Virus record (IMG/VR): IMGVR_UViG_3300000304_000005
Span: 1-64,000 of that record
Reading direction: 5' to 3' (one strand)
DNA from: a virus
Taxonomy: Duplodnaviria > Heunggongvirae > Uroviricota > Caudoviricetes
DNA: 64,000 nucleotides
A model generated the notes under the pieces. The model was not told where the DNA came from, searched no databases, and was given only the letters and a program-made list of their open reading frames with translations. Below, in pieces: positions 11,150-50,436 of this stretch; position 1 is the first letter of the stretch; every line of letters begins with the position of its first letter. The position numbers and the translations under genes are program-made.

Positions 11150-11539
11150 ATGAAGACAGACCTAAAACAGAATTACCTAAACAAGAAGTATGCGGAGCAT
11201 GACGATGAAGTTGATGTTCCGTATATTCATAAGCGTCCAAAGCGCAAGGTAAAGAAATCAAATCATAAACATGAATATAAAAACTGCGTCATTGTTGATT
11301 CTACGAATCCAAAAGTATTTCAACTTATCGGTCGTTGCAATGAATGCGGTAAGGTGATGAAGCCGGTACATGATAAGTGTATCGATAGGAAGTTTCCGAA
11401 TATCCAATATCAAACTTGGTTTATCAATTACCCCACAGAACATGAACAGGAATATGAAGATTTCAAGGAGTGGTGCAAGAAGCACTATAATACTTATGAC
11501 GTACCGGATTTCGATTTGTGGAAGACGAAGTTTATTTAG
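11150..11539 (+). CDS. hypothetical Zn-binding protein
   Basis: CNECGK...C pattern. 129 aa. Confidence 0.35.
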   Translation: MKTDLKQNYLNKKYAEHDDEVDVPYIHKRPKRKVKKSNHKHEYKNCVIVDSTNPKVFQLIGRCNECGKVMKPVHDKCIDRKFPNIQYQTWFINYPTEHEQEYEDFKEWCKKHYNTYDVPDFDLWKTKFI

Positions 11540-12003
11540 ATTGGATTAAGGATTTTATTATGTCCATAACTAGTTTCGACAGACGGATGTTTCATCAGGC
11601 ATATGTTGAGGCAACCAAGAGCACATTCGACAGATTTCACGTTGGCTGTGTTGTTGTTTACAAAGGACATGTTATTAGTCGTGGTCATAATAGCAAAAAA
11701 ACACATCCAGTCCAACAAAGGCAAAATCGTTTTAGGGTATTAAACAACTATGATAAGCCAAATAATTATTATCCACCAAGCATTCATGCAGAAGTATCTG
11801 CATTGTGCTCAATAAGTTATCCTGTAGGAATAAATATTAAGTGGGATAGGGTAAAAATATATGTAGTTAGAGTCCTTAAAAATGGGGATATGGCATGCTC
11901 TAAACCATGTGCTGCTTGTGAGAATTTGATACGTACACTTGGAATTAAAGGGTGTTATTACTCAGAAAATAATAATTGTTTGGCTTATATTGAGTATTGT
12001 TAA
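11518..12003 (+). CDS. dCMP (deoxycytidylate) deaminase
   Basis: CMP/dCMP deaminase zinc motifs HAEVSAL (HAE) and SKPCAACENLI (PCxxC). Confidence 0.6.
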   Translation: MEDEVYLDWIKDFIMSITSFDRRMFHQAYVEATKSTFDRFHVGCVVVYKGHVISRGHNSKKTHPVQQRQNRFRVLNNYDKPNNYYPPSIHAEVSALCSISYPVGINIKWDRVKIYVVRVLKNGDMACSKPCAACENLIRTLGIKGCYYSENNNCLAYIEYC

Positions 12004-12012
12004 GGAGGTGTT

Positions 12013-13446
12013 ATGTGTAAAAATATACATGAGCAATATGTTGAAAAACTTAAAAAGGTACATTCAAATATTATTGCTATTGATAAATATATTGATATGT
12101 ACACAAATATTGGGCATAAGTGTTTGAAGTGTGGCTACGAATGGAGCGTTAGACCATATAGTTTACTGCATGCAAAATACGGATGTCCAAAATGTTCATA
12201 TGTAGAAAGAGCGAAAGCAAGAAAGCTTACGCAAGAAGAATATAAAAAACGTGTATTAGAAAGTAATCCAAATGTTGAAGTAATCGGTGAATATATTAAT
12301 GCATCGACTCCAATAAAACATGTATGTAAAAAATGTGGATATGGATTAAACGGAGAATGGCTTACTATACCATCTCATATTATGAATGGGCACGGATGTC
12401 CGGTATGCTCTGGAAATATTATAGGCTCAGCCCCAGAATACAAGAATAGTATTTGGTCACAAGATGAATATCTTAATTTCTTTAAAAACTATATGTCAGA
12501 AGAACAAATGAAGATAAACATGCCAAATAGTCACGCAAAAATAGATGTTATTTGCCCTGTTTGTGGGAAACATAAGAACATATCTCCAAATACATTATGG
12601 AAACAGGGGCTTGGTTGTATTTGCAGTGATGGAGTAAGTTATCCAAATAAATTTATGTTCTCATTCTTAGAACAAATTGGGATTGATTTCAATAGAGAAC
12701 AATCATTTGAGTGGAGTAGCGGGAAAATATATGATTTTTATATTCCGTCTTTGAATTGCATTATAGAATGCAATGGAGAGCAGCATTATAAAGGATGGAA
12801 TAAAGTTAAAAATAGCGCTAAGTTTCAACGATTAAACGATGAAGAAAAATATAAGATGGCTATTGATAATGGAGTAAACAAAGATAAATATATTATTATT
12901 GATTGCAGTCGTTCAAATAAAGATTTTATTAAGCACAATATAGAGCAAAGTAATTTGTTAAATATATTGAATATTAATATATCTGACATTGATATTGAAC
13001 AATGTAATATTTTTGCTACAAGCAATTTAGTAAGACGTATTTGCGATATGTGGAACGATAAGCTTACTATCAAACAAATACAAGAAAAAACAAAAATCGT
13101 TACTGTTCGAGAATATTTAAAAAAGGGAAATGAGCTAGGATGGTGCAACGATTATACCGAAAATGAAGCTCGTAAAAGAGGCGCAAGATATAATAAAGGC
13201 AGATGGGTGAATGTTTATTGTTTGGAATTAAATAAAGTGTTTACATCTATATCAGAAGCGGCAAAACAAACCAAATTAAATTCAGAATCAATACGTATGT
13301 GCTGCTCTGGTAAATGGAATCAATATAATAATCAACATTGGTATTATCTTTATGATAAAGCTATGAAGGATGGAACTGAAATTAAGGGTGCTATTGCACT
13401 TGGTTTAATATCAGAAGAAGAGGCTATAAAACAACTTAACATTTGA
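12013..13446 (+). CDS. homing-endonuclease-like protein (tandem Zn-ribbons, endonuclease core, C-terminal NUMOD-like HTH)
   Basis: Repeated CxKCGY...CPxCS Zn-ribbon units. Core IIECNGEQHY (Vsr/PD-(D/E)xK-like). C-terminal VYCLELNKVFTSISEAAKQTKL resembles the DNA-binding modules of phage homing endonucleases. Confidence 0.4.
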   Translation: MCKNIHEQYVEKLKKVHSNIIAIDKYIDMYTNIGHKCLKCGYEWSVRPYSLLHAKYGCPKCSYVERAKARKLTQEEYKKRVLESNPNVEVIGEYINASTPIKHVCKKCGYGLNGEWLTIPSHIMNGHGCPVCSGNIIGSAPEYKNSIWSQDEYLNFFKNYMSEEQMKINMPNSHAKIDVICPVCGKHKNISPNTLWKQGLGCICSDGVSYPNKFMFSFLEQIGIDFNREQSFEWSSGKIYDFYIPSLNCIIECNGEQHYKGWNKVKNSAKFQRLNDEEKYKMAIDNGVNKDKYIIIDCSRSNKDFIKHNIEQSNLLNILNINISDIDIEQCNIFATSNLVRRICDMWNDKLTIKQIQEKTKIVTVREYLKKGNELGWCNDYTENEARKRGARYNKGRWVNVYCLELNKVFTSISEAAKQTKLNSESIRMCCSGKWNQYNNQHWYYLYDKAMKDGTEIKGAIALGLISEEEAIKQLNI

Positions 13447-13457
13447 AAGGAGGGTGA

Positions 13458-13709: not shown

Positions 13710-13744
13710 TTAATAATGTTATATGCTAAGGAGAATATATTCCT

Positions 13745-14923
13745 ATGTATCTTGATAATGCGGCTACGACAAAACCAAGGCAAGAAGTAATCGACACGAC
13801 GCTTGCATATCTTGCAGAATATTGGGAGAATCCATCTGCACTTTCATTCAATAGCCCAAAGATAAAAAAAGATATTGAAATCGCTAGAAATACCGTAGCT
13901 AAATCAATTAATGCTAAGGGCGGTCACAACATCTTCTTTACTTCTGGCGGTAGCGAGGCAAATTGTTGGGCTATTCAAGGATTCATTAACAATCGATTAA
14001 ACAATATGCATGTTCCATATATCATTACTACCAAGATTGAACATAAGTCGATTATGGAATGCGTAAAGAATCAAACGTTAGCAACGGTATATTATCTTGA
14101 TGTAAATACTGACGGATTTATTTCTATTGAAGAGCTTGATGATACAATTTCTTTAATGTTAAGCTGTGGAGTTGAACCAAAAGATATTCTCGTATCGATT
14201 CAATTTGCCAATAATGAAGTCGGTACGATTCAAGATGTTATTAATATCAGCAATGTGTGTCATATGTATGGTTGCGTTTTTCATACCGATGCTGTACAGG
14301 CTTTCGGGCATGTATATATTGACGTTGATGCTATGGGAATCGATATGTTGTCTGCTTCTGCTCATAAGATTGGTGGATGCAAAGGAACGGGCTTTCTATA
14401 CATTAAAGATGGTATTGAAATTAATCCGCTGATTTATGGTAGCCAAATGGATGGTATGCGAGGTGGAACAGAAAACGTTGCAGGAATCATGGGTATGGCT
14501 AAGGCAGTTGAGCTTATTGACCTGAATGACGCAAACAATGCCAAGTTCGCTAGGGATTATTTTATCGATAAGCTTGTTGATATCGGATGTAAACTTAATG
14601 GTCCATATGGAAGTGCTGTATCTCGTTATCGTCTGCCAAATAATATTAACGTGATTCTACCGGACAATATCAACGGAGAAAGTTTTGTTCTCGCCATTTC
14701 AATTGATGGTATTGATATTGGAACTGGTTCTGCTTGCAACTCACATTCTGTTGAACCATCGTATGTTCTTAAGGCAATGGGACTAACGGACGATGAAGCA
14801 AATTGTAGCATTCGTATATCCATTCCGAGTAATATGACGATGGATGATGTTGATAATGTTATGAATAGTATTAAACAAACTATTGATGTTATTTTATCTA
14901 TTCCAGAAAATGAAAATAATTAA
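13745..14923 (+). CDS. cysteine desulfurase (class V aminotransferase, NifS/IscS-like)
   Basis: PLP-lysine motif SASAHKIGGCKGTGFLYIK. C-terminal active-site GSACNSHSVEPSYVLKAMG (IscS SSGSAC...SHVL). Full-length 392 aa. Confidence 0.75.
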   Translation: MYLDNAATTKPRQEVIDTTLAYLAEYWENPSALSFNSPKIKKDIEIARNTVAKSINAKGGHNIFFTSGGSEANCWAIQGFINNRLNNMHVPYIITTKIEHKSIMECVKNQTLATVYYLDVNTDGFISIEELDDTISLMLSCGVEPKDILVSIQFANNEVGTIQDVINISNVCHMYGCVFHTDAVQAFGHVYIDVDAMGIDMLSASAHKIGGCKGTGFLYIKDGIEINPLIYGSQMDGMRGGTENVAGIMGMAKAVELIDLNDANNAKFARDYFIDKLVDIGCKLNGPYGSAVSRYRLPNNINVILPDNINGESFVLAISIDGIDIGTGSACNSHSVEPSYVLKAMGLTDDEANCSIRISIPSNMTMDDVDNVMNSIKQTIDVILSIPENENN

Positions 14924-14951: not shown

Positions 14952-17213
14952 ATGCTAGTAAATGGTGAGCGAGCGCTTGCATACATCGTAACTATCGATG
15001 ATATTACACCTATTGACGGAGCTGATAATATTGAACTTGCGCGTGTTAGTGGCTGGCGGGTAATTGTTAATAAAGAGCAATTTAAACCCGGCGATGCTGC
15101 CGTCTTCTTCGAAATTGATTCATTGGTTCCTGAAACTGAATGGTCTGAATTCTTGCGCCCAAAGAAATTTCGCGTGAAAACATATCGGCTAAATAAATTT
15201 AAAGTTGTATCGCAAGGGCTTCTTATGCCGATGGATATTCTTCCACAGAATAAAACGTTTAATGTTGGTGACGATGTTACCAACATTCTTGGTGTTACCT
15301 ATTACGTCAAGGAAGATAATTATCGTAAAGCAAAAGACGGCAATCCAAATGAGAAGTATAATCGTATGGCAGCAAAGCATCCGAAGCTTGCAAAGAAGAA
15401 GTGGTTCCGTTGGCTCATGAAGCGTATGTGGGGCAAGAAGCTGCTGTTTGTATTTTTGGGTAGACATATTGATGAGAAGAAGTATAAGTTCCCTGATTGG
15501 ATTAAACGCACGGACGAAGAAAGGTGTGAAAATACACCTTGGATTACACAGTCTAAAGAACCGTTTGTTTGCACGGAAAAAATTGACGGTTGTTTCGATT
15601 ATAATACTAAGATTAGAACCAATGAGGGCCATATTCCAATTGGTAGAATTGTTAATCAGAAATTACCGATTCTAGTTGCATCTTACAATGAAGACAAACA
15701 AATCGTAGAATATAAAAATATTGTTGATTATCATAAAATCAAAGTATCACATCCAGTTCTAAAAATTGGCGTTGGTTATCGTGGACATGGCAACAGAAAT
15801 AAATATATTACATGTACTGATAACCATGAATTTTATACACCGACCGGATGGAAACAAGCGAAGGATTTAAAGCAGGGAGATATCGTATATCATTTTACCG
15901 AGTCTTTCCCGTATGAAATTAAGCAACTTATTCTAGGAAGCTTGCTTGGAGATGCATCTATTAATGCAAACGATAAAGACGGTGGATATAGGTGTGTTCA
16001 TTTTACACAATCAGACAAGCAAATTGCTTATTTTAATTACAAGAAGAACCTTCTTGGGAAATATGCGTTGGGAGAAAGGACAAGGACAAGCGGATATGGA
16101 AGCTTGATGCATGATATGCATACTACTACAAATCTTGAGCTTAATAAATTCTTAAATGAACATTGCATGAAAAACGGGAAGAAGTTTGTTACCCAAGAAT
16201 GGTGCAACGAACTTGACCCTATGGGCCTAGCCTTCTGGTATATGGATGATGGAAGTATTGCTAACCGCGATAACGACAAGCTTGGATGTAGAATTCATAT
16301 TTCAACAAATGGGTTTTCTCTACAAGAGAATGAAACGTTGGCAAATATGCTAAGAGACAGGTTCGGCATCGAGGCTACGATTGGAGACAAAGAAACGTAT
16401 AAGGGATATACGCTTATTCTTGATGTGAAAAATACCGAAAGGTTCTGTTCGTTGATTGCTCCATATGTATGCAATAGTATGAAATACAAACTCCCCAAAA
16501 AGTATCAAGATATAAAGTGCTGCTATGATAACATTTGCTTTGATTCTGGTATGAACATTGTTGAAGTTGATATTAAGTCCATAGAGAATATTGATGAACA
16601 CAAAGAATATTTCTTTGACCTTACGATTGAAGATAATCATAATTATTTTGCACAGTCTATCCTTGTTCATAATTGTTCCACAACGGTGTTTCTAGACGCA
16701 ACAAAACGTAAGCACGATTTTGGAGTGTGCTCTAGAAATGTTAGGCAAATAACACCAGATATAGAGAATTACCATACTAAATCTTCTGGAACAAATGTGT
16801 ATTGGGAAATGGCATTGAAGTATGATATGCAAAATGCACTTGAAGATATCGCAAAGAAATATGATGTTCAACGTGTTGTGCTTCAGGGAGAGACATATGG
16901 AGAAGCCATTCAGGGAAATCCATTGCACCTAAAGTATCGTGATTTTGCCGCATTTAATCTTGTGTTTGATGGCGAGCGACTAGGTTCAATTCAGGCAAAG
17001 GAAATTCTTGATGATTACAAGATTCCCTTTGTTCCAATTATTGACGATGCATATTATATGCCAGACACATTTGAAGAGCTTAAGAAACAAGCAGACGGTA
17101 AGAGCACAATCAATCATAAATGTCTACGCGAAGGATTCGTTTATCGTAGCTATGATGGTAAGCAATCTGCTAAAAACGTTAGTGTAAAATATCTGCTTAA
17201 GCAAAAAGATTAA
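14952..17213 (+). CDS. RNA ligase (DRB0094/Rnl-like nucleotidyltransferase) interrupted by an in-frame intein
   Basis: N-terminal LAYIVTIDDITPIDGADNIELARVSGWRVIVNKEQFKPGDAAVFFEIDSLVP matches the RNA-ligase family N-domain. Ligase motif I CTEKIDG is followed immediately by the intein Cys1. Extein resumes at CSTTVFLDATKRK. Confidence 0.6.
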   Translation: MLVNGERALAYIVTIDDITPIDGADNIELARVSGWRVIVNKEQFKPGDAAVFFEIDSLVPETEWSEFLRPKKFRVKTYRLNKFKVVSQGLLMPMDILPQNKTFNVGDDVTNILGVTYYVKEDNYRKAKDGNPNEKYNRMAAKHPKLAKKKWFRWLMKRMWGKKLLFVFLGRHIDEKKYKFPDWIKRTDEERCENTPWITQSKEPFVCTEKIDGCFDYNTKIRTNEGHIPIGRIVNQKLPILVASYNEDKQIVEYKNIVDYHKIKVSHPVLKIGVGYRGHGNRNKYITCTDNHEFYTPTGWKQAKDLKQGDIVYHFTESFPYEIKQLILGSLLGDASINANDKDGGYRCVHFTQSDKQIAYFNYKKNLLGKYALGERTRTSGYGSLMHDMHTTTNLELNKFLNEHCMKNGKKFVTQEWCNELDPMGLAFWYMDDGSIANRDNDKLGCRIHISTNGFSLQENETLANMLRDRFGIEATIGDKETYKGYTLILDVKNTERFCSLIAPYVCNSMKYKLPKKYQDIKCCYDNICFDSGMNIVEVDIKSIENIDEHKEYFFDLTIEDNHNYFAQSILVHNCSTTVFLDATKRKHDFGVCSRNVRQITPDIENYHTKSSGTNVYWEMALKYDMQNALEDIAKKYDVQRVVLQGETYGEAIQGNPLHLKYRDFAAFNLVFDGERLGSIQAKEILDDYKIPFVPIIDDAYYMPDTFEELKKQADGKSTINHKCLREGFVYRSYDGKQSAKNVSVKYLLKQKD
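15591..16673 (+). mobile_element. intein (361 aa) with LAGLIDADG homing-endonuclease domain
   Basis: Starts CFDYNTKIRTNEGHIPIGRIV (A block). Ends ...SILVHN followed by extein +1 Cys. Two LAGLIDADG motifs LILGSLLGDASI and LAFWYMDDGSI. Confidence 0.6.
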
Positions 17214-17600: not shown

Positions 17601-18473
17601 ATGGACATTCTAGACGGACGGATTGTTGCAAATCAAATTAAAGATAATGCAAGAATCTTAGTAAGTCGTATTGAAAACGAATATGATGATGTGGTTAAAT
17701 TAGTTGTTATTCAGGTCGGCAATGACCCGGCATCATGTACATATATACGCAATAAAGAAAAGGCATGCAGCTATGTTGGAATTGAAACTGAAACGCGCCG
17801 GTTTGACTCAAATATTTCAACAGATATGCTCGTTGATTTCATTGAAAATTTAAACGAAGATGATTCAGTCAATGGTATTTTAGTACAGCTGCCATTGCCA
17901 GTGCATCTCAATGAGCAAAAAATCATTAATGCTATCGACCACGATAAAGACGTTGATGGTTTTACGTTCATTAATGCCGGTAAGCTCGCTCGTAACTACA
18001 AGAAGAAAATGCAGCTTTTGCCATGTACGCCCATGGGAATCATGAATATTCTTTCATGGTATGATATCAATGTTGCCGGTAAGAATTGCGTGGTAGTCGG
18101 GAGAAGCAATATTGTTGGCAGGCCAATGGCTGAACTGCTATTAAATTCTAATGCAACGGTAACTATTTGTAATTCGTATACTTCAAACCTGAAGGATATT
18201 TGCAAGAGTGCCGATGTGCTGATTTGCGCAATCGGCAAGCCAAAGTTCTTTACCGAAGAACACATTAAAGATGGTGCTATTATTATCGATGTTGGAATGA
18301 ATAGAGATAACAACGGTAAGTTGTGTGGCGATGTAGATTTCAATAGCGTATCGAAGCTAAGCGGCGCTATCACGCCTGTTCCCGGAGGTGTCGGGCAGAT
18401 GACGGTTGCAATGCTTATGGACAATTGCATTACAGCTTATTGTTTACAGCACAACCTACTCTATATTATGTAG
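17601..18473 (+). CDS. folD: bifunctional methylenetetrahydrofolate dehydrogenase/cyclohydrolase
   Basis: Full-length similarity pattern: ILDGRIVANQIKDN..., VQLPLPVHL, DVDGFTFINAGKL, CTPMGIMNILSWY, VVVGRSNIVGRPMAELLL, PVPGGVGQMTVAML. Confidence 0.75.
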   Translation: MDILDGRIVANQIKDNARILVSRIENEYDDVVKLVVIQVGNDPASCTYIRNKEKACSYVGIETETRRFDSNISTDMLVDFIENLNEDDSVNGILVQLPLPVHLNEQKIINAIDHDKDVDGFTFINAGKLARNYKKKMQLLPCTPMGIMNILSWYDINVAGKNCVVVGRSNIVGRPMAELLLNSNATVTICNSYTSNLKDICKSADVLICAIGKPKFFTEEHIKDGAIIIDVGMNRDNNGKLCGDVDFNSVSKLSGAITPVPGGVGQMTVAMLMDNCITAYCLQHNLLYIM

Positions 18474-38799: not shown

Positions 38800-39465
38800 A
38801 TGGTTGATTTCCAAATCATTAAAAAAGATGGAACACTAGAACCATACAACGAACAAAAGATTATCAATGCCTGTAAGAAAGCAGCAGCAAGAGCGCTTGA
38901 TGATTTGTCTGATGATGACTATCAGAATGTGTGCGATGCAGTAATGAGCTATATTACAGAGCATTACGATAATGGTTCTGATATTCCTGTCAAAACGATT
39001 CATTCAATCGTTGAACAAACACTAGTTGACCTATATCCTAAGACTGGCGAAGCATACCGTGAATACCGTAATTACAAAGTTGACTTTGTAGCCATGCTTG
39101 ACGATGTATATCAGAAGAGCCAGTCAATTCGATACCTCGGAGACGTAAGCAACGCAAACACAGATTCATCTATGATTTCTACGCAGCGCTCGCTTATCTA
39201 TGGACAGCTAAATAAGAATCTATATCGTAAGTTCTTTTTGAATAAAGATGAGCTTCAAGCATCAAATGATGGATACATTTATATCCATGACATGAAAGAC
39301 CGTCTCGACGGATTTAACTGTTGTTTGTTTGATATGGGGAACGTTGTTAAAAGCGGATTTGAGATGGGCAACGTCTGGTATAACGAGCCTAAGACTCTTG
39401 ATGTTGCATTCGATGTCATATCAGATGTGACTATGAGCGCGGCAAGCCAACAGTACGGTAAGTAA
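38800..39465 (+). CDS. nrdD: anaerobic ribonucleoside-triphosphate reductase, exon 1 (ATP-cone plus start of catalytic domain)
   Basis: ATP-cone MVDFQIIKKDGTLEPYNEQKIINACKKA. ORF ends at a stop right after ...QQYGK, at an intron-like boundary GGTAAG|TAAAAATTGCC. Confidence 0.6.
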   Translation: MVDFQIIKKDGTLEPYNEQKIINACKKAAARALDDLSDDDYQNVCDAVMSYITEHYDNGSDIPVKTIHSIVEQTLVDLYPKTGEAYREYRNYKVDFVAMLDDVYQKSQSIRYLGDVSNANTDSSMISTQRSLIYGQLNKNLYRKFFLNKDELQASNDGYIYIHDMKDRLDGFNCCLFDMGNVVKSGFEMGNVWYNEPKTLDVAFDVISDVTMSAASQQYGK

Positions 39466-39770
39466 AAATTGCCGTAGTAAAACCTGCTTAACCCTGCCAA
39501 GGGGTGTGTAATTATGTATATTATGCTAACGGTGAAACCTAAGTCGATAGATATGGTAATACCGTGTTATCTTTAACCAACTCCTATATAGATAAGGAGC
39601 GAAAATGATTTATGGGTTAAAGAGAATGTAGAGGACATCGAAAGGGTATCTTAATTTTAAAGCTAGAATTAAGAGAGTAACCGAGTAGAGTAAATTGCGA
39701 GATAGGCACGCAATTGAAACAGCAGGAAACGTTTAGCAAACGTTTAAGATATGTTGCAACCAAGTAACCA
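39466..39770 (+). mobile_element. group-I-like intron 1 in nrdD (ORF-less, ~305 nt)
   Basis: Non-coding insert between two nrdD-like ORF segments. Shares motifs GTAAAACCT, GGGTGTGT, ATGCTAACGG with inserts 2 and 3. Boundaries approximate. Confidence 0.45.
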
Positions 39771-40271
39771 GTATGGAAACATATGTCTTGGTTGGGTTTT
39801 ACAATTCCACGAGTCGAGACTATTCTTGCTCCTTATGCAGAGAAGTCATATAAGAAGTATTATGATGAATATTTCGATATCGTGAATGAAGATAGCGACG
39901 AAGCAAAAGAGAACGCAGAGAAGTATGCTGATAAAAAGGTATATCGAGATATGGAACAGGGCTTCCAGTCTTGGGAGTATCGATTCAATACTGTTGGTTC
40001 TTCTCGTGGCGATTATCCATTCATTGCCATCTCGTTTGGCATTGGTACAAGCAAGTTCGAGAGAATGGCAAGTGAGGCAGCGCTACGTGTTCGTATGGGC
40101 GGGCAGGGTAAGCCGGGATTTAAGCGTCCAGTCCTATTCCCTAAGCTAACATTCCTTTACGATGAGAATCTTCATGGCGAAGGAAAAGAGCTGGAATATC
40201 TTTTCGATATCGCTATTGAGTGCAGCAGCAAGACAATGTACCCTAAACAAAATTGGGGCTTGGCAGCGTAA
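39771..40271 (+). CDS. nrdD: nrdD exon 2
   Basis: ORF NTVGSSRGDYPFIAISFGIGTS...KRPVLFPKLTFLYDENLHG, class III RNR-like. Frame opens after TAA at 39765. Confidence 0.5.
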   Translation, partial: VWKHMSWLGFTIPRVETILAPYAEKSYKKYYDEYFDIVNEDSDEAKENAEKYADKKVYRDMEQGFQSWEYRFNTVGSSRGDYPFIAISFGIGTSKFERMASEAALRVRMGGQGKPGFKRPVLFPKLTFLYDENLHGEGKELEYLFDIAIECSSKTMYPKQNWGLAA

Positions 40272-41351
40272 GCTACCAAGAAAACTTCGTGAACCTGTAA
40301 TTTCAGGGTGTGTAACTCACGTTAGTAACCGTAGGAAATGACGGCTAAGAGTTATGCTAACAGGGGAATGTTCATTTTATATGAACGCTATCCTGTGGAG
40401 TTTAATCATTATAATCTTGTTTCGATTTACTTGGAGGCAAGATGGATGATAGAAAAATATACTATGTTTATAAATGGATAAGATTAGACATGAATCAAGT
40501 GTTTTATATTGGAAAAGGACACGGTAATAGATATAAAGATAGAAGTATGAGAAATAGGTATTTCAACAATGTTGTCAATAAAGTTGGAATGGATAATATA
40601 GTAATCAAATTTATAGAAACCGATTTAGACGAAGAAACTGCGTTTGAAAAAGAAAGATATTATATTAAATATTATAAAGAGCTTGGACATAGACTAACAA
40701 ATTTAACTAGCGGAGGTGATGGCAGTTCAGACTGGTACTCTTTTCTATCAGACGAAGAAAAAGAGCGGCATAGAGAGATATCTAAAAGTTTCTTGGGCAG
40801 ACACCATACAGAAGAAACGAAAAAGAAAATGAGTAAGTCTATGACTGGTCTTAAACACCGTTTCACAGATGAATCTCGTCAAAGACTGATAGATAGCGTA
40901 AAATCTAGGCCAGCTCCGTTTAAAGGTAAACATCTTTCTGAAGAAACAAAAGAAAAAATAAGACAAACTCGCTTGGGAACACAAAGCAAAAATGCTAAAG
41001 AAGTTTTGGTACTGAATACAGATTACGATATTATTGACAACATTCGTTCAAGAGCAGATACATTTAAGAAATATCAATATGTAAAACAACATGAAATTAG
41101 AAAATGTCTTGAAGGTAACTCAAAGCTTTTCGATACTAAAAATTGTTTGTTTTATCAAAATATATGTTTCATTTATAAACAAGATTATGATAGATTAAAT
41201 TCTCAATCGACTATCGAAACGGTAGCATAAGACGTAGCTTATGTGAGAACGGAGTAGAGTACACATAATGTGAAATTCATTGTGTGGAAGTGCGAAGAAT
41301 CCAATGACAGTTCATTGGATTATGATATAGTCAAAGCCCAACACGTATTGT
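40272..41351 (+). mobile_element. group-I-like intron 2 in nrdD carrying a GIY-YIG homing endonuclease ORF
   Basis: 1.08-kb insert. 5' region shares GGGTGTGTAA...ATGCTAACAGG motifs with introns 1 and 3. Contains a free-standing HEG. Boundaries approximate. Confidence 0.45.
40442..41230 (+). CDS. GIY-YIG homing endonuclease (intron-encoded) with NUMOD3 repeats
   Basis: IYYVYKWIRLDMNQVFYIGKGHGNRY matches the GIY-YIG signature. Repeated HTEETKKKMSKSMTGLKH / LSEETKEKIRQTRLG NUMOD3-like motifs. Confidence 0.65.
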   Translation: MDDRKIYYVYKWIRLDMNQVFYIGKGHGNRYKDRSMRNRYFNNVVNKVGMDNIVIKFIETDLDEETAFEKERYYIKYYKELGHRLTNLTSGGDGSSDWYSFLSDEEKERHREISKSFLGRHHTEETKKKMSKSMTGLKHRFTDESRQRLIDSVKSRPAPFKGKHLSEETKEKIRQTRLGTQSKNAKEVLVLNTDYDIIDNIRSRADTFKKYQYVKQHEIRKCLEGNSKLFDTKNCLFYQNICFIYKQDYDRLNSQSTIETVA

Positions 41352-41462
41352 GAGAGCGTGGTATGGTAACATACATGGGCTTGGATTTTTTAAGTCTCAC
41401 AGGAGAGGGATATATCCCATCTATGTATAAGAAATATGGTAAAGTAGTATCGCTTATGGGTA
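41352..41462 (+). CDS. nrdD: nrdD mini-exon 3 (~37 codons)
   Basis: Open frame ERGMVTYMGLDFLSLTGEGYIPSMYKKYGKVVSLMGK. Ends at GGTAAG|TGAAAATGCAGCC, nearly identical to the exon 1/intron 1 junction. Below the ORF-track size cutoff. Confidence 0.4.
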
Positions 41463-41465
41463 AGT

Positions 41466-41705
41466 GAAAATGCAGCCCATGTAAAACCTATTGAACCTTG
41501 CTTAAAGGGTGTGTGAGAAATCATGCTAACGGATAGGTCTTATGGAGACGAGGGTTTATGATATAAGATGAGTCCGTGCCAAGCCTATAGATAGTCTATA
41601 GGAAGGTGTATCGACCAACTGTGATGAGTGTAGCAGTGTAGGACGGGAGATAAGCACCCGTTCCAAGCAATAGGCTCGATGAAGAATTAGCAATTCTGAG
41701 AGAAC
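41466..41705 (+). mobile_element. group-I-like intron 3 in nrdD (ORF-less)
   Basis: Starts TGAAAATGCAGCCCATGTAAAACCT...GGGTGTGTGA...ATGCTAACGG, which parallels the intron 1 5' region. Boundaries approximate. Confidence 0.4.
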
Positions 41706-41714
41706 ATATGGTCA

Positions 41715-42701
41715 GTGCGAATAGCGATATTCGATAAAACGTGCAGAGCTTCGCTTTCTCCTTGGTACGTCCGTGGTGGAATGGAACCGGCAGACGATGA
41801 TGATTATCCTGTGTTTGAAGGGCGCTGTAATTTGGGAGCGATTTCTCTACATCTGCCAATGATTCTTGCTAAGGCTCTCCAAGAGAATATGGATTTTTAT
41901 GAGGTTCTTGACTATTATCTTGAGATGATTCGTAACCTTCACAAGAGAACTTATGCGTTCCTTGCAGAGAAACCTGCATCTACGAATCCGCTTGCCTTTA
42001 TGCAAGGTGGCCTACTAGGCGGTACGCTTAAAGCAGATGAGAAGATTGGCAAGCTGCTTCCTCCGATGACGATGAGTTTTGGCATCACGGCATTGAACGA
42101 ACTACAAGAGCTATATAACGGCAAGTCACTTGTTGAAGATGGTGAATTCGCTCTTGAAGTGATGCAGTATATCAACGACTATGTAAACCGCATCAAGAAG
42201 GAAGACAATATCCTGTGGGCTGTTTACGGAACTCCTGCCGAGTCGCTATGTGGATTACAGGTAGAACAATTCCGTAAGAAGTATGGCATTGTCAGGGGAG
42301 TATCAGACCGAGAGTATGTTTCTAACTCGTTCCACTGTGGAGTTTGGGAGGACATTACTCCAATTCAGAAGCAAGACTTAGAGGGTAGATTCTGGAATAT
42401 GTTCAATGGTGGTAAGATTCAATATTGTCGCTATCCTGTTTCATACAACCATGAAGCACAGAAGACCCTTGTTCGTCGTGGTATGCAGAAGGGATTCTAT
42501 GAGGGGTGCAACCTAGCGCTTTCATATTGCGAAGATTGTGGTTATGAGCAGCTTGAAATGGATGTATGTCCTAAGTGTGGTAGTGAAAACATCACGCAGA
42601 TTGACCGCATGAACGGGTATATTGGATATACTAAGATTCATGGTAAGAGTCGTTATAACCATGCTAAGGTTGTAGAAATCAAAGAACGCAAAAGCATGTA
42701 G
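41715..42701 (+). CDS. nrdD: nrdD final exon (C-terminal half with Zn-ribbon and glycyl-radical motif)
   Basis: CEDCGYE...CPKCGSE Zn ribbon. Glycyl radical motif DRMNGYIGYT (RxxGY). The listed start is a GTG. The true exon begins around 41700-41715. Confidence 0.6.
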   Translation: MRIAIFDKTCRASLSPWYVRGGMEPADDDDYPVFEGRCNLGAISLHLPMILAKALQENMDFYEVLDYYLEMIRNLHKRTYAFLAEKPASTNPLAFMQGGLLGGTLKADEKIGKLLPPMTMSFGITALNELQELYNGKSLVEDGEFALEVMQYINDYVNRIKKEDNILWAVYGTPAESLCGLQVEQFRKKYGIVRGVSDREYVSNSFHCGVWEDITPIQKQDLEGRFWNMFNGGKIQYCRYPVSYNHEAQKTLVRRGMQKGFYEGCNLALSYCEDCGYEQLEMDVCPKCGSENITQIDRMNGYIGYTKIHGKSRYNHAKVVEIKERKSM

Positions 42702-42704
42702 TCT

Positions 42705-43226
42705 GTGAGGTGTTGTACAATGAACTATCATATGATTAGAACAGACGATATGCTTAACGGCGATGGACTAAGAGTAGTTGTCTTCCTTGCAATGTGCGAC
42801 CATCATTGTCCCGGATGTCATAACCCAGAGACATGGAACGGATATGGCAGCAAACCATTTGACGAAGAAGCCAAAAATATGGTATATGCAGAGCTTGACA
42901 AGGATTATATTTCTGGCATTACTTTGTCTGGCGGTGACCCATTGAACGAAGCTAATATCGATGATGTCCTTGAGTTAATCAAAGATATTAGAATTAAATA
43001 TCCCAACAAGACCATATGGCTCTATACGGGATTTTCGTGGGAGAAAATTGTTTCTAATGTAAAACTGTATAATATTGCAAGATTGTGTGACGTTGTTGTT
43101 GACGGTAGATTTGTTCAAGAGCTTGCAGATGTCAATTATCCTTGGGCTGGTTCAACGAATCAAAGAGTAATTGATATTAATAAAACAATGGCTAATCAGA
43201 AGCTTACATTGCTTAATAATAGTTAG
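42705..43226 (+). CDS. nrdG: anaerobic RNR activating enzyme (radical SAM)
   Basis: MCDHHCPGCHNPETW (Cx3Cx2C). 173 aa. Immediately downstream of nrdD. Confidence 0.7.
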   Translation: MRCCTMNYHMIRTDDMLNGDGLRVVVFLAMCDHHCPGCHNPETWNGYGSKPFDEEAKNMVYAELDKDYISGITLSGGDPLNEANIDDVLELIKDIRIKYPNKTIWLYTGFSWEKIVSNVKLYNIARLCDVVVDGRFVQELADVNYPWAGSTNQRVIDINKTMANQKLTLLNNS

Positions 43227-43234: not shown

Positions 43235-44356
43235 ATGATTGGCATATATAAGATTACAAATCTTCTTAATGGTAAATGTTATATCGGTCAAAGCGTAGAT
43301 ATTGAGAGGCGTGTTCGGGACCATATAAAAGCATCTAAAAGTGAGTATTCGACAGAATACGATTCCCCTATTCACAAATCTATACGAATTCATGGCGTTA
43401 AAAACTTTTCCTTTGAGACTATAGAAGAGTGTAAAGCGGAACAGCTTAATGATAAAGAGATATATTGGATACAATATTATGACACGTATTTACACGGATA
43501 CAACCAAACAATTGGAGGCAATATTGGAGACAGCGTAAAACGAGCTGTGTGCGGATATGATTTTAAGGGGAATAAACTTTACGAATATAATACAATACGT
43601 GAGGCTGAAAAAGTTCACGCTCGTGGTATTTGTGAAAGCTGTATAAACAGAACACAAGATAGAACAGCAAATGGATACTATTGGTTCTATAAAGATGATG
43701 TGAATGGTTTATCAGAAGAAGAAGTTTTCCAAATGATTTTCGAGCGTTCTCCTACTGTTTGTTGTCAGCTAGATAAAGATACTGGCGAATTGATTGATGA
43801 ATATTTTACTGCCAAAGAAGCAGCGGAAGCGCTTGGATATAATTCAATAGGAAACATAACTTCTTGTTGTCTCGGAAATAGAAGAATTGCTGTTGATTTT
43901 CAATGGTGTTATAGAAGGGATTTAAAAAACAGAATAAATAAGCAACCCCCTCCTGTAAACACTTACAGCAAACCTGTTACTCAATATAGGTTATCTGGCA
44001 TGAAACTAAAAGAATGGGAAAGCGGTAGGGTGGCAGCAATAGCAACTGGATGTTCTGATGCTCATCTATCACAAGTGTGCAATGGCAAGAGACAACAGTG
44101 TGGGGGATATCAATGGAGATACACATCTGATAATATAGAACAGCTTGAAGATATAAGAACCGAGACAGTTATTGATTTAGATACAAACTATATTTTCCCA
44201 ACAATTAATCATGCAGCGAAACATTTTAATATTGCACATCAAACAATGAAGAAGATATGTTTGGGAGAAACAGATAGATATCCAGATATTCATGCTGTTT
44301 TTATACTATTAGATTCACCAGAAATGCAAAACACGACAGAAGCGGATGACAACTAA
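43235..44356 (+). CDS. GIY-YIG homing endonuclease
   Basis: MIGIYKITNLLNGKCYIGQSVDIERRVRDH matches the GIY-YIG signature. C-terminal repeated HTH-like modules. Confidence 0.55.
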   Translation: MIGIYKITNLLNGKCYIGQSVDIERRVRDHIKASKSEYSTEYDSPIHKSIRIHGVKNFSFETIEECKAEQLNDKEIYWIQYYDTYLHGYNQTIGGNIGDSVKRAVCGYDFKGNKLYEYNTIREAEKVHARGICESCINRTQDRTANGYYWFYKDDVNGLSEEEVFQMIFERSPTVCCQLDKDTGELIDEYFTAKEAAEALGYNSIGNITSCCLGNRRIAVDFQWCYRRDLKNRINKQPPPVNTYSKPVTQYRLSGMKLKEWESGRVAAIATGCSDAHLSQVCNGKRQQCGGYQWRYTSDNIEQLEDIRTETVIDLDTNYIFPTINHAAKHFNIAHQTMKKICLGETDRYPDIHAVFILLDSPEMQNTTEADDN

Positions 44357-44846: not shown

Positions 44847-45515
44847 ATGAAGACAACTGGTGTTACCGAGATGAAGCACATTGCCAACGATTATCCAGTA
44901 GAATGCGTTCCAAGCAACTACCCAGAAAATATCGACACGCCATCAAGTGATAACGACTTTGCATATTTAAAGGCGCTATATGAGAAGCAAAATAATCCTC
45001 GGTTTGAGATTGTATCATTTGAGCAATTCAAGAATGATTGGCTTGATGCTTTCAAGGGGCTATGGGATGAAGATAATGAGAACGATATGAATGATATCAA
45101 GTACATCTATAACTGCCTAACCATCCCAAGTCGTTCAACTAAGCACAGTGCAGGATATGATTTCAAGTCTCCAATCAATTTCAAGCTTCAGCCCGGTGAA
45201 TCAATCATGATTCCAACTGGTATCCGCTCTTATATGCCAAAGAATATGGTACTGATGATTTTCCCTCGTAGCGGACTAGGCACAAAGTATCGGCTAGGAC
45301 TTTGTAACACTGCGAGCGTAATCGACAGTGATTATTTTTATTCTAATAATGAAGGACATATTTACATTAAAATGATTAATGAAGGAGACAAGGTGGTCAC
45401 AGTTGACCAAGGTCAGGCATTCGTACAGGGAATCTTTATTGAATACTTCACTACCTATGATGATAATGCAGATGGTGTCCGTACTGGCGGCATGGGAAGC
45501 ACCGATAAGAAGTAG
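44847..45515 (+). CDS. dut: dUTPase / dCTP deaminase family protein
   Basis: Motifs IMIPTGIRSY, PRSGLGTKYRL, TASVIDSDY (dUTPase motif III-like), GDKVVTVDQGQAFVQ. Confidence 0.55.
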   Translation: MKTTGVTEMKHIANDYPVECVPSNYPENIDTPSSDNDFAYLKALYEKQNNPRFEIVSFEQFKNDWLDAFKGLWDEDNENDMNDIKYIYNCLTIPSRSTKHSAGYDFKSPINFKLQPGESIMIPTGIRSYMPKNMVLMIFPRSGLGTKYRLGLCNTASVIDSDYFYSNNEGHIYIKMINEGDKVVTVDQGQAFVQGIFIEYFTTYDDNADGVRTGGMGSTDKK

Positions 45516-48090: not shown

Positions 48091-48243
48091 AAAGGAAATA
48101 CTATGAACACTATCGCAATGCTAGAAGCCCGCAAGAATCGTCTGATGCGTAATGGTAAGAATTCTGAGGGGCAAGGCGTACTCCGCAAGATTGAGCGCGA
48201 AATCAGGAAGCTGAAGACTTCTTCTCAAATGTAAGGAATTGTT

Positions 48244-48531
48244 ATGCGTGAACAGACTAAAATTCCACGCTGTTGTGCTAACTGCCAGTGTTGGGATGTA
48301 TTAAATGAAAACGAAATTTATGAGTATTATGATTGCGCAGAAGGAACTTGCCATCGATACCCGGTAAATATTAAATGCATTATTGGGCATGATATGAATA
48401 AAAATGAAATTTATGATGTACACTCTTCATATAAAGATACGCCTCTTATGACACACCCAGTAACATTTGCAGGTGATTGGTGTTTTGAATATATCCCAAG
48501 CGATACTCCGCGCTTTATCGGTGATATTTAA
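48244..48531 (+). CDS. hypothetical Cys-rich protein
   Basis: 95-aa ORF with CCANCQC...C...C pattern. Confidence 0.3.
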   Translation: MREQTKIPRCCANCQCWDVLNENEIYEYYDCAEGTCHRYPVNIKCIIGHDMNKNEIYDVHSSYKDTPLMTHPVTFAGDWCFEYIPSDTPRFIGDI

Positions 48532-48544
48532 CAAATAAATATAT

Positions 48545-49243
48545 ATGCTAAAAGGAGATGATATGGATAATGATAATGATATATATAAAATAAATTATTA
48601 TATATATATGACACAAAATATTATTACTAATAAAAAATATATTGGTAAAAGAATGTGCAGATGCAACATTGAAGATGATAAATATTTAGGAAGCGGTAAG
48701 ATATTAAAGCAAGCAATTAAAAAATATGGCAAAGAAAACTTTAAAAAAACTATACTAGAAATCTGTAGCACAGAAGAACAATTAAATCGCAGAGAAAAAT
48801 ATTGGATAAAACATTTTAACGCCTGTGCCAGTGATTCATTTTATAATATAGCAAAAGGCGGCGATGGCGGAGATACGTTTACACACTTGCCTATAGAAGA
48901 ACAAAACAGAATAAAAGAAATACAAAGTCAATGTAGTTCAGGGCATAATAATCCTATGTATGGCAAACACCATACACAAAGCACCAAAGAAAAAATACGT
49001 CTTGGACAGCAAAAATATTTAAATTCTAATAAAAAATGGGGTAAATCAGGAATGACAGGAGAATTAAATTCTTTGTCGCAAGATATTAAATGCCTCGAAA
49101 CAAATAAAAGTTTTCATGGTATAAGAGAAGCTTCTCGAATAACAGGAATACCAGCTCCTAATATTATCAGGTCATTAAAAAGCAATGGATACTATTCAGC
49201 TGGTAAATTAAACGGAAACAAATTACATTGGGTGTATTGTTAA
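48545..49243 (+). CDS. GIY-YIG homing endonuclease with NUMOD3
   Basis: YYIYMTQNIITNKKYIGKRM...YLGSGKIL matches GIY-YIG. NPMYGKHHTQSTKEKIR is a NUMOD3-like motif. Confidence 0.55.
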   Translation: MLKGDDMDNDNDIYKINYYIYMTQNIITNKKYIGKRMCRCNIEDDKYLGSGKILKQAIKKYGKENFKKTILEICSTEEQLNRREKYWIKHFNACASDSFYNIAKGGDGGDTFTHLPIEEQNRIKEIQSQCSSGHNNPMYGKHHTQSTKEKIRLGQQKYLNSNKKWGKSGMTGELNSLSQDIKCLETNKSFHGIREASRITGIPAPNIIRSLKSNGYYSAGKLNGNKLHWVYC

Positions 49244-49256
49244 AGGAGATAGATGC

Positions 49257-49958
49257 ATGATTAAATTTGAGAATGCTGAGACTATGGGTTGGGAACACGT
49301 TATCAGAGGAATGCGAAATCCTTTAAACTCATGGAGTAAATCAGATAGTGAATGGCAAACTGATTATTTTGGAACTGACATCTTCTCTGAAACTTCGTAT
49401 TACAAAACTAATAGCAAATTTGAAGTTGGCTCCAATGACTTGAATCTTATGAAGCGTCTTCATAATGCCGGTACCGACCATCGTAAATTCATGCGTATGA
49501 TTGCAGTATATGTCGATATCACAGCGCCTTTATATTGGTGGAAAGAGTTTGACACATACAAGGTTGGAACGGTTGCAAACTCGTGTAGCACGATGCATAC
49601 AATTCATAAAAAGGCATTCACGCAAAATGATTTTTCTTGTGAACATCTCGACCCGGCAAATCTTCTGGTACTTGATGAAATTATCTTTAATCTGAACACG
49701 TCACGAGACCGATATTTGAAAAGCAAGGATAAGAACGACTGGTGGCAAATGATTCAACTTCTGCCGAGTTCGTACAACCAGAAACGAACGGTTATGCTAA
49801 ACTATGAAGTTCTTGCAAATATGTATAAGTCTCGTAAGAATCATAAACTTGATGAGTGGAGAGAGCTGTGCAAGTGGATTGAATCATTGCCTTATTTTGA
49901 GCTTATCACGGGTATTAAGAATACAAATGAACAGGTGACGGCAAATGACAAAGATTGA
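49257..49958 (+). CDS. ThyX-like (flavin-dependent thymidylate synthase family) protein with divergent active-site motif
   Basis: Pattern HRKFMRMIAVYVDITAPLYWWKEFDTYKVGTVANSCS parallels the ThyX core H..F.h.F.h.AP.F..RQ.FRHR....N..S, but RHR is replaced by DTYK. Downstream LANMYKSRKNHKLDEWREL resembles the ThyX C-terminal helix. Confidence 0.4.
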   Translation: MIKFENAETMGWEHVIRGMRNPLNSWSKSDSEWQTDYFGTDIFSETSYYKTNSKFEVGSNDLNLMKRLHNAGTDHRKFMRMIAVYVDITAPLYWWKEFDTYKVGTVANSCSTMHTIHKKAFTQNDFSCEHLDPANLLVLDEIIFNLNTSRDRYLKSKDKNDWWQMIQLLPSSYNQKRTVMLNYEVLANMYKSRKNHKLDEWRELCKWIESLPYFELITGIKNTNEQVTANDKD

Positions 49959-50436
49959 AGTCCTGCAAAGCAAGAATTCACAACAAGCAAAGATAGATGT
50001 TATCATTGACAAACTCGTCTCATACATTAAAGACTATACTAAACACGAACTCGAAGATGTATTAAATAATGAAGAACAATCTAGCGGCAATGAACCTGAT
50101 TATATTGCTTCTTATACCGATATCTGTAACAGTATTAAGCATCAAATGAATTATAACGAAGACGATTCTTGCCAAGATGAACAAGATGTACAACATGACT
50201 CGGTAAATCATCCAAATCACTATAACGATGGAAACATTGAGGTTATTGATTTTATTGAAGATAAAAATCTTGGCTTTCATCTTGGCAATGCAATCAAATA
50301 TATTTCTCGTGCCGGTAAAAAACATGAACAAGGTATGAGTAATAAGCAAAAGGAAATTAATGATTTACGTAAAGCCATGTGGTATATCAATTGTAAGATT
50401 GACCAGTTAAAGAACGAGGGAAAAGATGAAAATTAA
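49945..50436 (+). CDS. DUF3310-like phage protein
   Basis: HPNHYNDGNIEVIDFIEDKNLGFHLGNAIKYISRAGKK matches the conserved DUF3310 core seen in many phages. Confidence 0.4.
   Translation: MTKIEVLQSKNSQQAKIDVIIDKLVSYIKDYTKHELEDVLNNEEQSSGNEPDYIASYTDICNSIKHQMNYNEDDSCQDEQDVQHDSVNHPNHYNDGNIEVIDFIEDKNLGFHLGNAIKYISRAGKKHEQGMSNKQKEINDLRKAMWYINCKIDQLKNEGKDEN

Follow-up and report, generated by a model that had tools for sequence, protein, structure and literature searches.

A large family of ThyX-fold phage proteins with a replaced RHR motif among nucleotide-metabolism genes

The 64-kb window (the whole stretch of viral DNA that was analysed, part of a genome of ~129 kb) contains, at 49257-49958 on the + strand, an open reading frame of 233 aa whose product is best explained as a member of a very large clade of the ThyX (Thy1) superfamily that has no name as yet. 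As the protein has the ThyX fold and the family is found among DNA-precursor genes, it probably represents a new form of pyrimidine-nucleotide enzyme. That it is a remodelled ThyX-derived enzyme consuming dUMP in the place of thymidylate synthase is proposed tentatively, with a confidence a little short of even.

Fold and spread of the family

The string FDTYKVGTVANSCS, quoted in an earlier sequence-only reading of this DNA, is found within the open reading frame, which that reading had assigned to the ThyX fold. The Pfam search of the protein returned no match even at E<10, the NCBIfam search returned none, with the Thy1 cut-offs (PF02511, TIGR02170) not reached, and phmmer against the PDB was equally empty. 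Although invisible to these ordinary sequence searches, the Thy1 fold is confirmed by the predicted structure. The AF2 monomer model has a pLDDT of 87.6 and a pTM of 0.79, and Foldseek searches of the PDB and BFVD matched it to ThyX only, members of its own family aside. Alignment of the family with a ThyX alignment by hhalign gave an E-value of 4.5e-4 over 150 columns, with a probability of 33%. Pfam Thy1 was reached at E<=0.01 by 9 of 150 relatives, and P0330, which has the same altered motif, is the sole relative above the Pfam gathering score (29.3 bits against 24.8). The fold assignment is thus borne out by model, structure search, profile alignment and the P0330 score.

The protein corresponds to PHROG 6721, labelled "unknown function", with an E-value of 2.4e-79 (residues 1-219 on profile positions 7-216/218). 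Matches to the family number 4,878 clusters at 50% identity; its carriers are phages and prophages whose hosts are gut anaerobes. With ThyX/FDTS (PF02511 Thy1; T. maritima TM0449, H. pylori 3AH5) it has in common the blocks H-x(13)-A-P-[ILF]-[FY], L-P, N and R-x(2-3)-H-x(3)-E, as well as a phage-borne location amid nucleotide-metabolism genes. In contrast, the identity of the window protein to ThyX is about 10-16%, with no detectable Pfam or NCBIfam match, and an extra insertion of ~30 residues follows its first helix (residues about 28-57). PolB (PDB 4P5A), which methylates UMP/dUMP at C5 in polyoxin biosynthesis, is a neofunctionalised ThyX paralogue. A sequence search identifies it as ThyX (E 3.7e-34 to TmThyX) and its reaction has stayed the same, whereas the window protein goes unrecognised and has lost the motif.

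Residues of the active site

Residues were mapped on the 33%-probability hhalign alignment and the monomer model. In the profile alignment, R78-H79-R80 of ThyX fall on T100-Y101-K102, and no RHR string occurs anywhere in the protein, so that the replacement of the motif reported from sequence stands and the motif has not merely shifted. The third basic residue is kept as a lysine (K102). Among 191 diverse members, drawn mainly from representatives of the 50%-identity clusters, the site reads TYK in 132, RYH in 37, TYR in 7 and RHR in none; R-Y-H is the version of a sister subfamily, and a basic residue stays at position 100 or 102 in either form (TYK or RYH). The RHR motif is not absolutely invariant in phage ThyX homologues, as ThyX of Chaseviridae (Pel53, 4HA13) has KHQ and that of Bacillus phage BSP7 has K-Y...R at this site. 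Unlike the window protein, these combine the retention of S-x-R-Y, R174 and E182 with a match to TmThyX at E 1e-23 to 1e-32.

Outside the motif, several ThyX residues are retained, and R90, Y91, R147 and R165 have also changed. On the retained side, H53, S88 and N163 of ThyX correspond to H75, S111 and N182, and R174, H178 and E182 to R193, H196 and E200 in the block R193-x-x-H196-K197-x-x-E200-W201. On the altered side, E-x-S-x-R-Y has become S109-x-S111-x-M113-H114, which replaces R90 by M113 and Y91 by H114, and R147 and R165 align, with moderate confidence, to I166 and E184, contacts to the dUMP and FAD phosphates that are not conserved. In ThyX, the phosphates of FAD and dUMP are bound by R78, R80, R90, R147 and R165 (PMC6514825), dUMP is activated by R174 (PMC8316439), and mutation of Y91 or R90 cripples the enzyme (PMC8316439, PMC11940539). 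None of the five phosphate-binding arginines is conserved at the aligned positions, and since Y91 and R90 are replaced by invariant His and Met, canonical binding of FAD and dUMP cannot be assumed. Judged by sequence, the residues for activation of the uracil ring and for the flavin/folate face appear to be retained (R193, S111, H75, N182, H196, E200), while the phosphate-clamping arginines and the Tyr91/Arg90 acid pair appear to have given way to a new near-invariant set (Y101, S109, M113, H114, K197).

Both motifs, S-x-S-x-M-H and R-x-x-H-K-x-x-E-W, are ~99% conserved across the family. In the 191 members, Y101, S109, S111, M113, H114, R193 and H196 are conserved at 99-100%; M113 and H114, in place of the ThyX Arg and Tyr, hold in 190 of 191 with the Ser kept, and the C-terminal block has R193 in 190, H196 in 191 and E200 in 182. 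The wider polar set (H75, D87, Y101, S109, S111, H114, N182, R193, H196, K197, E200) is 85-100% conserved. The pattern at the 99-100% positions fits a ligand site better than decay.

The same residues bear on two other readings. In one, which is unlikely, the protein is a ThyX derivative without catalysis and would act solely by binding, as a sponge or sensor for a nucleotide or flavin, as a regulator of NrdD or of the host thymidylate synthase, or in counter-defence. The loss of most phosphate-binding arginines and of the Tyr91/Arg90 pair speaks for it, as do the failure of Pfam and NCBIfam to recognise the protein and the frequent occurrence of the gene alone among early or replication genes. 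The polar constellation, however, looks catalytic, even if binding sites can be conserved too, and a sponge would leave the link to dUMP-producing enzymes and FolD unexplained. ThyX use, moreover, is not known to be common to all of the hosts. Less probable still is a nucleotide-metabolism enzyme without one-carbon transfer, for example a metal-dependent nucleotide hydrolase or isomerase that would use the conserved His and Asp on a ThyX scaffold. New invariant His, Asp and Ser residues (H75, D87, D99, H114, H196) seem to replace arginines in a pattern reminiscent of metal sites, and many NTP pyrophosphatases, nucleotidases and kinases are encoded near the gene; but such chemistry has no precedent in the ThyX fold, and the kept uracil-activating arginine, H53 and S88 point to the ancestral reaction.

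Nucleotide and folate genes of the window and of related loci

The genes that the sequence-only reading had grouped with the ThyX-like protein are all present by Pfam or ORF evidence, each on the + strand. A zinc deaminase of the dCMP deaminase type (11518-12003, 161 aa; PF00383 55 bits, PHROG 174) has the zinc motifs HAE and PCAAC. FolD, a methylene-THF dehydrogenase/methenyl-THF cyclohydrolase (17601-18473; PHROG 7320), has both its catalytic and its NAD(P)-binding domain (PF00763 126 bits, PF02882 221 bits) and scores ~350 bits with NCBIfam FolD models. The anaerobic ribonucleotide reductase NrdD (38800-42701), whose DNA matches ICP1, is split by insertions into pieces at 38800-39465, 39783-40271 and 41715-42701, and one insertion holds a GIY-YIG endonuclease gene (40442-41230); in relatives, the NrdD pieces (PF03477/PF13597/PF01228) come with LAGLIDADG or HNH inserts. 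The radical SAM activase NrdG (42705-43226) matches NrdG of ProddE, and its orthologue in the relatives L013-L015 matches PF13353/PF04055. A trimeric-type dUTPase of 222 aa (44847-45515) matches PF00692 over residues 92-203 with 64 bits (cut-off 22), after an N-terminal extension of ~90 aa; NF010561 gives 121 bits, below its equivalog cut-off, and no NCBIfam equivalog cut-off is reached. The five conserved dUTPase motifs were found, with AGYDF, PRSGLG, VIDSDY and RTGGMGST readable in the translation. The module is no operon: its genes are spread over 39 kb, with replication and homing endonuclease genes between them, and 32 kb separate FolD from the ThyX-like gene.

No canonical ThyA or ThyX was detected in the 64-kb window (Pfam scan, for ThyA also tblastn), in ProddE and FNU3, whose genomes are complete, or closer than 10 kb to the family gene in 167 related loci, an absence that comes without a calibrated background rate. 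Within the same distance, these 167 loci contain MazG-like proteins (44), NrdD/G (~36), DUF3310 (21), dUTPase (14), DUF1599, the 'nucleotide modification associated domain 1' (9), GK-like kinase (8), dCMP deaminase (6), NT5C (4) and FolD (3), co-oriented with the family gene where positions are listed (IMG/VR set). A recognised nucleotide-metabolism neighbour is missing in about half of the loci, and FolD and dCMP deaminase are nearby in a minority only. The dUTPase gene directly abuts the family gene in one locus (L063), and ProddE has the order ThyX-like, exonuclease, DUF3310, DR2231-type NTP-PPase, kinase, NrdD, NrdG. Few phages have FolD (60 of 50,697 records; Fusobacterium phages account for five of these), and FolD and the ThyX-like family recur together in several lineages. 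Five Fusobacterium records carry the family, with FolD co-carriage confirmed directly in FNU3, which also has a dUTPase. In relatives, C5-cytosine and N6-adenine DNA methyltransferases adjoin the family gene.

In the proposed function, dUMP would be made from NrdDG products by the dUTPase, MazG or dCMP deaminase of the phage, and FolD would supply the folate pool. The ThyX-like enzyme would then move a folate-derived one-carbon unit to C5 of dUMP, possibly with a differently bound redox cofactor or a different one, and would take over the role of thymidylate synthase in these phages. The product, either dTMP or a 5-substituted dUMP, may be passed on for phosphorylation to the protein encoded by the overlapping, translationally coupled downstream gene.

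The sequence-only reading had suggested a folate-dependent modification of dUMP or dCMP, for example towards a hypermodified pyrimidine. The ThyX fold without RHR or S-x-R-Y, the dUMP and folate genes and the missing canonical synthase agree with its first part; a hypermodified base in virion DNA is not supported. The chemical outcome could differ from that of ThyX because R90 and Y91, proposed to handle the carbinolamine and the leaving water (PMC8316439), are replaced by Met and His. The enzyme could make a non-canonical pyrimidine nucleotide, such as 5-hydroxymethyl-dUMP, if the exocyclic-methylene intermediate were hydrated and not reduced, though this is rather improbable; equally so is the sequel, in which the DUF3310 protein would phosphorylate such a product for incorporation, leaving modified thymine in virion DNA. 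The DUF1599 neighbours, and an NT5C deoxynucleotidase and a kinase that adjoin the gene in one widespread group, would suit such a route. Bacillus phage SP-15 offers a precedent as a hypothesis: its thymine is hypermodified, and it encodes gp130, a second and divergent Thy1 protein proposed to be an hmdUMP synthase (PMC5977210), which like the window protein is a phage ThyX-like protein without the RHR motif. However, gp130 (413 aa) gives no match to the family HMM and thus lies outside the family, and SP-15 is a myovirus of aerobic Bacillus whose hypermodification cluster is known. The experimentally known phage dUMP/dCMP hydroxymethylases are all of the ThyA type (PMC8989533). Also against this route, a Pfam scan of 56 ORFs of the window, which covers 64 kb of the ~129-kb genome, revealed no ThyA-type hydroxymethylase, glycosyl- or aminoacyl-transferase or DNA hmU kinase, and most carriers of the family are small temperate phages or prophages without a dedicated kinase or a dTTP-excluding enzyme.

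The overlapping DUF3310 gene and the neighbouring endonucleases

The strongest local clue was overlooked in the sequence-only reading. The end of the ThyX-like gene is overlapped by 14 nt (ATGACAAAGATTGA) by the start of a gene for a DUF3310 protein (49945-50436, + strand, 163 aa; PF11753 61 bits on residues 87-149), and elsewhere the two are fused, in two independent cases (P0330 and P0343). The DUF3310 protein matches PHROG 236 and others labelled 'nucleotide kinase'. The T7 nucleotide kinase gp1.7 has PF11753 at residues 122-184 (81.5 bits), and BLASTP aligned the two proteins with 36% identity over 69 aa (E 1e-6, gp1.7 residues 120-183). In BLASTP the two are alike over the C-terminal 69 residues only and not over the full length, the N-terminal 120 residues of gp1.7 being absent from the window protein. 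The 60-residue domain is common to the window gene, gp1.7 and lactococcal SaV, whose early, toxic product sets off AbiV (PMC8306868), a link that also lends weight to a ThyX derivative acting by binding only. The DUF3310 protein is a putative kinase: its domain may be the kinase module of gp1.7, and is also the one tied to SaV/AbiV sensitivity.

Directly upstream of the ThyX-like gene is a GIY-YIG/NUMOD3 homing endonuclease gene (48545-49243, + strand; PF19835, PF07460, PHROG 314). It is missing at the same site in the 92%-identical relatives L013-L015, and is a mobile element outside the pathway. HNH insertions occur in 7 of 150 family representatives. The ThyX-like gene is a target of homing endonucleases, as are td, thyX and nrdD, which speaks for the proposed function.

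Fold and putative active site of the ThyX-like protein

The ORF at 49257-49958 (+ strand) encodes a protein of 233 residues that contains FDTYKVGTVANSCS. No match was found in Pfam (even at E<10), in NCBIfam, or with phmmer against all PDB chains, and the sole profile matched was PHROG 6721 ('unknown function', E 2e-79). A structure was predicted from an alignment of 84 sequences collected in two homologue searches. With Foldseek, this model (pLDDT 87.6, pTM 0.79) pointed to ThyX both in the PDB and among predicted viral structures. The family was also compared, using hhalign, with an alignment of nine ThyX sequences, that of T. maritima (verified against 1KQ4) and eight from phages, yielding an E of 4.5e-4 over 150 columns; the nine-sequence alignment was required, the probability against one single ThyX sequence being only 2.3%. 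Pfam Thy1 was reached at E≤0.01 by nine of 150 family representatives, and the family protein P0330 scores above the Thy1 gathering threshold although it has the same altered motif. As Foldseek, the profile-profile comparison and the Pfam matches of the relatives concur, the predicted ThyX fold is considered secure.

In ThyX, the phosphates and ribityl of FAD are held by the RHR motif and the R165 equivalent, dUMP is held by the first arginine of RHR, the S88/R90 pair and R174, and Y91 forms a cap over the atoms that react (PMC6514825). Activation of dUMP is due to R174, and carbon transfer needs S88, R90 and Y91 (PMC8316439, PMC11940539). The residues of the T. maritima enzyme were mapped in the hhalign register, a moderate-confidence profile alignment, and on the monomer model. 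The motif R78-H79-R80 is lost and corresponds to T100-Y101-K102, the third position still being basic. Also lost are R90 (M113), R147 (I166) and R165 (E184), while E86 and Y91 are changed to S109 and H114. The residues H53 (H75), N85 (N108), S88 (S111), P151 (P170), N163 (N182), R174 (R193), H178 (H196) and E182 (E200) are kept, and R74 is replaced by another basic residue (K96). Thus, at the aligned positions, the arginine that activates uracil and Ser88 are still present, as is the pocket on the side of His53. The sequence-only reading had noted the replacement of RHR, which was right but understated, since the loss extends to most of the arginines that clamp phosphates and to the Tyr/Arg pair. 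A mere shift of the motif is ruled out: RHR occurs nowhere in the protein, and the aligned triplet is TYK.

A widespread family with a rebuilt active site

A profile search among 1.84 billion representatives returned 4,878 clusters (50% identity) at E≤1e-3, the best 150 of which were all family members, and words of the query recur in more than 8,000 clusters at 90% identity. At least 594 stretches in IMG/VR and at least 595 in species-representative bacterial genomes encode the protein. Among 191 diverse members, Y101, S109, S111, M113, H114, R193 and H196 are conserved at 99–100%, and K197, E200, W201, P170, D61, D87 and D99 at more than 90%. The triplet equivalent to RHR is TYK in 132 of them, RYH in 37 and TYR in seven, but never RHR; a basic residue is nearly always retained at its first or third position. 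Across these aligned members, the altered active site is a trait of the whole family and not that of a decayed copy. Literature searches returned no account of a phage ThyX clade lacking RHR. Within the ThyX superfamily, PHROG 6721 is a new and abundant variant whose active site is rebuilt.

Where an isolate or genome bin has a named host, this is nearly always a strict anaerobe from the gut or rumen (Clostridium, Clostridioides, Enterocloster, Lachnospiraceae, Oscillospiraceae, Ruminococcus, Fusobacterium, Desulfovibrio). Cultured carriers include Fnu1/FNU3, phiCTP1, ProddE, PMBT24 and phiCD211. About one third of the family representatives have C-terminal extensions, which are mutually non-homologous, contain no Pfam domain except in two DUF3310 fusions (P0330 and P0343, two of 390 family proteins), and offered no hint of function.

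Other relatives of ThyX deviate from RHR. In proteins deposited as ThyX from Staphylococcus phage Pel53 (record L007, 283-942), Escherichia phage 4HA13 (L008, 319-936) and Bacillus phage BSP7 (L009, 292-1092), RHR is replaced by KHQ or K-Y...R while S-x-R-Y is kept, and that of BSP7 has a 15-residue insertion within the motif. Because of these three deviating sequences, RHR is not strictly invariant in phage ThyX. The product of gene 130 of SP-15 (L193, 1-1242), the second Thy1-family protein of this hypermodified-thymine Bacillus phage, has no RHR motif and, by eye, apparently a lysine at the position of R174. It matches the ThyX profile over residues 100-165 only and lies outside the PHROG 6721 family.

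The family is a target of homing endonucleases: a GIY-YIG gene adjoins the ThyX-like gene in the window, and HNH insertions are found in seven of 150 family representatives. Such targeting is typical of conserved nucleotide-metabolism genes. The endonuclease gene at 48545-49243 is missing at that spot in relatives of 92% identity.

Genomic setting and candidate function

The window comes from a large phage genome, its 92%-identical relatives lying on contigs of about 129 kb; a DNA-level search found no close relative among deposited or annotated phages. All the nucleotide and folate genes proposed from the sequence alone are present besides the ThyX-like ORF: a dCMP-deaminase-type zinc deaminase (11518-12003; PF00383, with HAE and PCAAC motifs), FolD (17601-18473, both Pfam domains matched), NrdD (38800-42701), NrdG (42705-43226) and a trimeric-type dUTPase with an N-terminal extension (44847-45515). 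NrdD is in three ORF pieces split by insertions, one of which carries a GIY-YIG endonuclease gene (40442-41230). These genes form no operon; they are spread across 39 kb amid replication genes (PolIII alpha, helicases, primase) and interspersed homing endonucleases, of which the window has at least six.

The ThyX-like gene, which has an AGGAG site of its own, overlaps by its final 14 nt with the beginning of a gene for a DUF3310 protein. In T7 gp1.7, annotated as a nucleotide kinase, DUF3310 is the C-terminal domain and the only part that resembles this downstream gene's product; in lactococcal phages it is the domain of SaV (PMC8306868). Neighbours within 10 kb were counted at 167 related, non-independent loci (87 metagenomic/IMG-VR and 80 from bacterial genomes), on partial contigs. 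A MazG-like NTP pyrophosphatase occurs at 44 loci, NrdD or NrdG at about 36, DUF3310 at 21, dUTPase at 14, DUF1599 at nine, a guanylate-kinase-like kinase at eight, dCMP deaminase at six, NT5C nucleotidase at four and FolD at three; at least one such nucleotide-metabolism neighbour was found at 85 of the 167 loci. In the IMG/VR set, the neighbours with listed positions are all co-oriented with the ThyX-like gene.

Some gene orders are telling: dUTPase, ThyX-like, DUF3310 at locus L063; SSB, DUF1599 or DUF3310, ThyX-like, MazG around the family protein P0174; and PolIII alpha, DNA methylases, ThyX-like, kinase, NT5C, NrdDG, dUTPase in the very widespread group around P0065. ProddE, a T7-like Desulfovibrio phage, has ThyX-like, exonuclease, DUF3310, DR2231-type NTP-PPase, kinase, NrdD and NrdG. 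Few phages have FolD (60 of 50,697 records, five being Fusobacterium phages), and five Fusobacterium records carry the ThyX-like family; the joint presence of FolD, dUTPase and the ThyX-like gene was checked directly in FNU3. Canonical ThyA and ThyX were searched for and, as a raw, uncalibrated count, were absent from the window, the 167 loci (within 10 kb) and the complete ProddE and FNU3 genomes.

The most likely function, proposed tentatively and at somewhat less than an even chance, is that of a C5 transferase that consumes dUMP, depends on folate and takes the place of a thymidylate synthase. The phage dUTPase, MazG and dCMP deaminase would make dUMP, FolD would supply methylene-THF in some of these phages, and the ThyX-like protein would consume dUMP and transfer a folate-derived unit to C5. 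This proposal stems from the thymidylate-synthase-like neighbours, the retained uracil-activating residue, and the fact that no other recognised consumer of dUMP or methylene-THF was found in these phages. To judge from the residues, cofactor binding would clearly differ from that of ThyX, and canonical binding of FAD and dUMP is doubtful since the residues are replaced; three other possibilities therefore remain. That the protein is a non-catalytic binder or regulator is unlikely, and an unrelated nucleotide chemistry on the ThyX scaffold is rather improbable. The sequence-only reading, which is supported in part (a ThyX-fold protein lacking RHR in a phage with dUMP-producing and folate genes), had suggested a modified-base pathway as an example. 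For a modified-base synthase, the SP-15 gene 130 product, a different RHR-less Thy1 protein, is a published hypothetical precedent (PMC5977210). However, no hypermodification genes were recognised among the window ORFs scanned against Pfam, and the idea sits poorly with the number of small temperate prophages in which the gene stands alone; we give this function a decidedly low probability.

There is a small chance that the family is a mechanistically new pyrimidine C5 one-carbon transferase on the ThyX scaffold, either a thymidylate synthase dispensing with tightly bound FAD or the first ThyX-type dUMP hydroxymethylase. The former would draw on another reductant, or on one that is loosely bound, as would suit strict anaerobes. 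The latter would mean that a non-canonical thymine derivative, hidden from sequencing, is present in many phages of gut Clostridia, Fusobacterium and Desulfovibrio.

To our knowledge, ThyA and ThyX are the only two thymidylate-synthase solutions. The unique flavin chemistry of ThyX has made this enzyme a drug target. As the flavin and dUMP phosphate clamps and the catalytic Tyr/Arg are replaced while the fold and the uracil-activating arginine are kept, the clade would represent either a third route for thymidylate chemistry or a novel activity that modifies nucleotides. Its members abound in the gut viromes of humans and animals, at present under the annotation 'hypothetical', and their function is directly testable since several cultured phages carry the gene. 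Knowing this function would improve the annotation of thousands of gut-phage genomes and tell whether their DNA is chemically canonical, which bears on restriction evasion and phage engineering.

Other features of the window and related phages

Free-standing homing endonuclease genes (HNH and GIY-YIG) are unusually dense (10690-11139, 12013-13446, 40442-41230, 43235-44356 and 48545-49243), in addition to an intein LAGLIDADG. In the 92%-identical relatives (L013-L015), LAGLIDADG or HNH genes are inserted at other positions of nrdD, which suggests several independent intron or endonuclease invasions of this gene.

An RNA ligase (14952-17213; PHA02142 OB-fold and RNA_ligase), interrupted by the LAGLIDADG-carrying intein, a PNK-like kinase (34493-35440) and an RlaP-type nucleotidyltransferase (27398-28201) suggest an RNA-repair set. 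Directly 5' of nrdD, a 301-residue protein (37579-38484) has a CX3CX2C radical-SAM-type motif (CNKQCPMC), with no match in Pfam and only faint radical-SAM matches in NCBIfam. The phage also encodes a NifS/IscS-type cysteine desulfurase (13745-14923; TIGR03402, 335 bits, below the cut-off), which may serve the Fe-S cluster in NrdG or in this radical-SAM-like protein.

A tyrosine integrase (7470-8270) suggests a temperate lifestyle, and the three SLH domains of an endolysin (2254-3420) point to an S-layer-bearing host (Bacillota). A gene for an SPFH/prohibitin (Band_7) protein lies at 4465-5424, and such genes are also present in the unrelated ThyX-like carriers ProddE (L002, 5898-6788) and FNU3 (L104, 5741-6550). 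In four records of the P0065 group (L016-L019, around 8700-9440), the ThyX-like gene is immediately preceded by an AcrVA2-like gene (PF26125) of opposite orientation, which is flanked by MT-A70 and C5 DNA methyltransferase genes.

The minus strand of the window contains a complete diversity-generating retroelement (51098-54500). The ORF at 53175-54500 carries the variable repeat (53202-53341) at its 3' end; the template repeat is at 52793-52932 and the reverse transcriptase gene at 51373-52419 (PF00078). The two repeats are 81% identical, and 25 of the 27 mismatches fall at template adenines.
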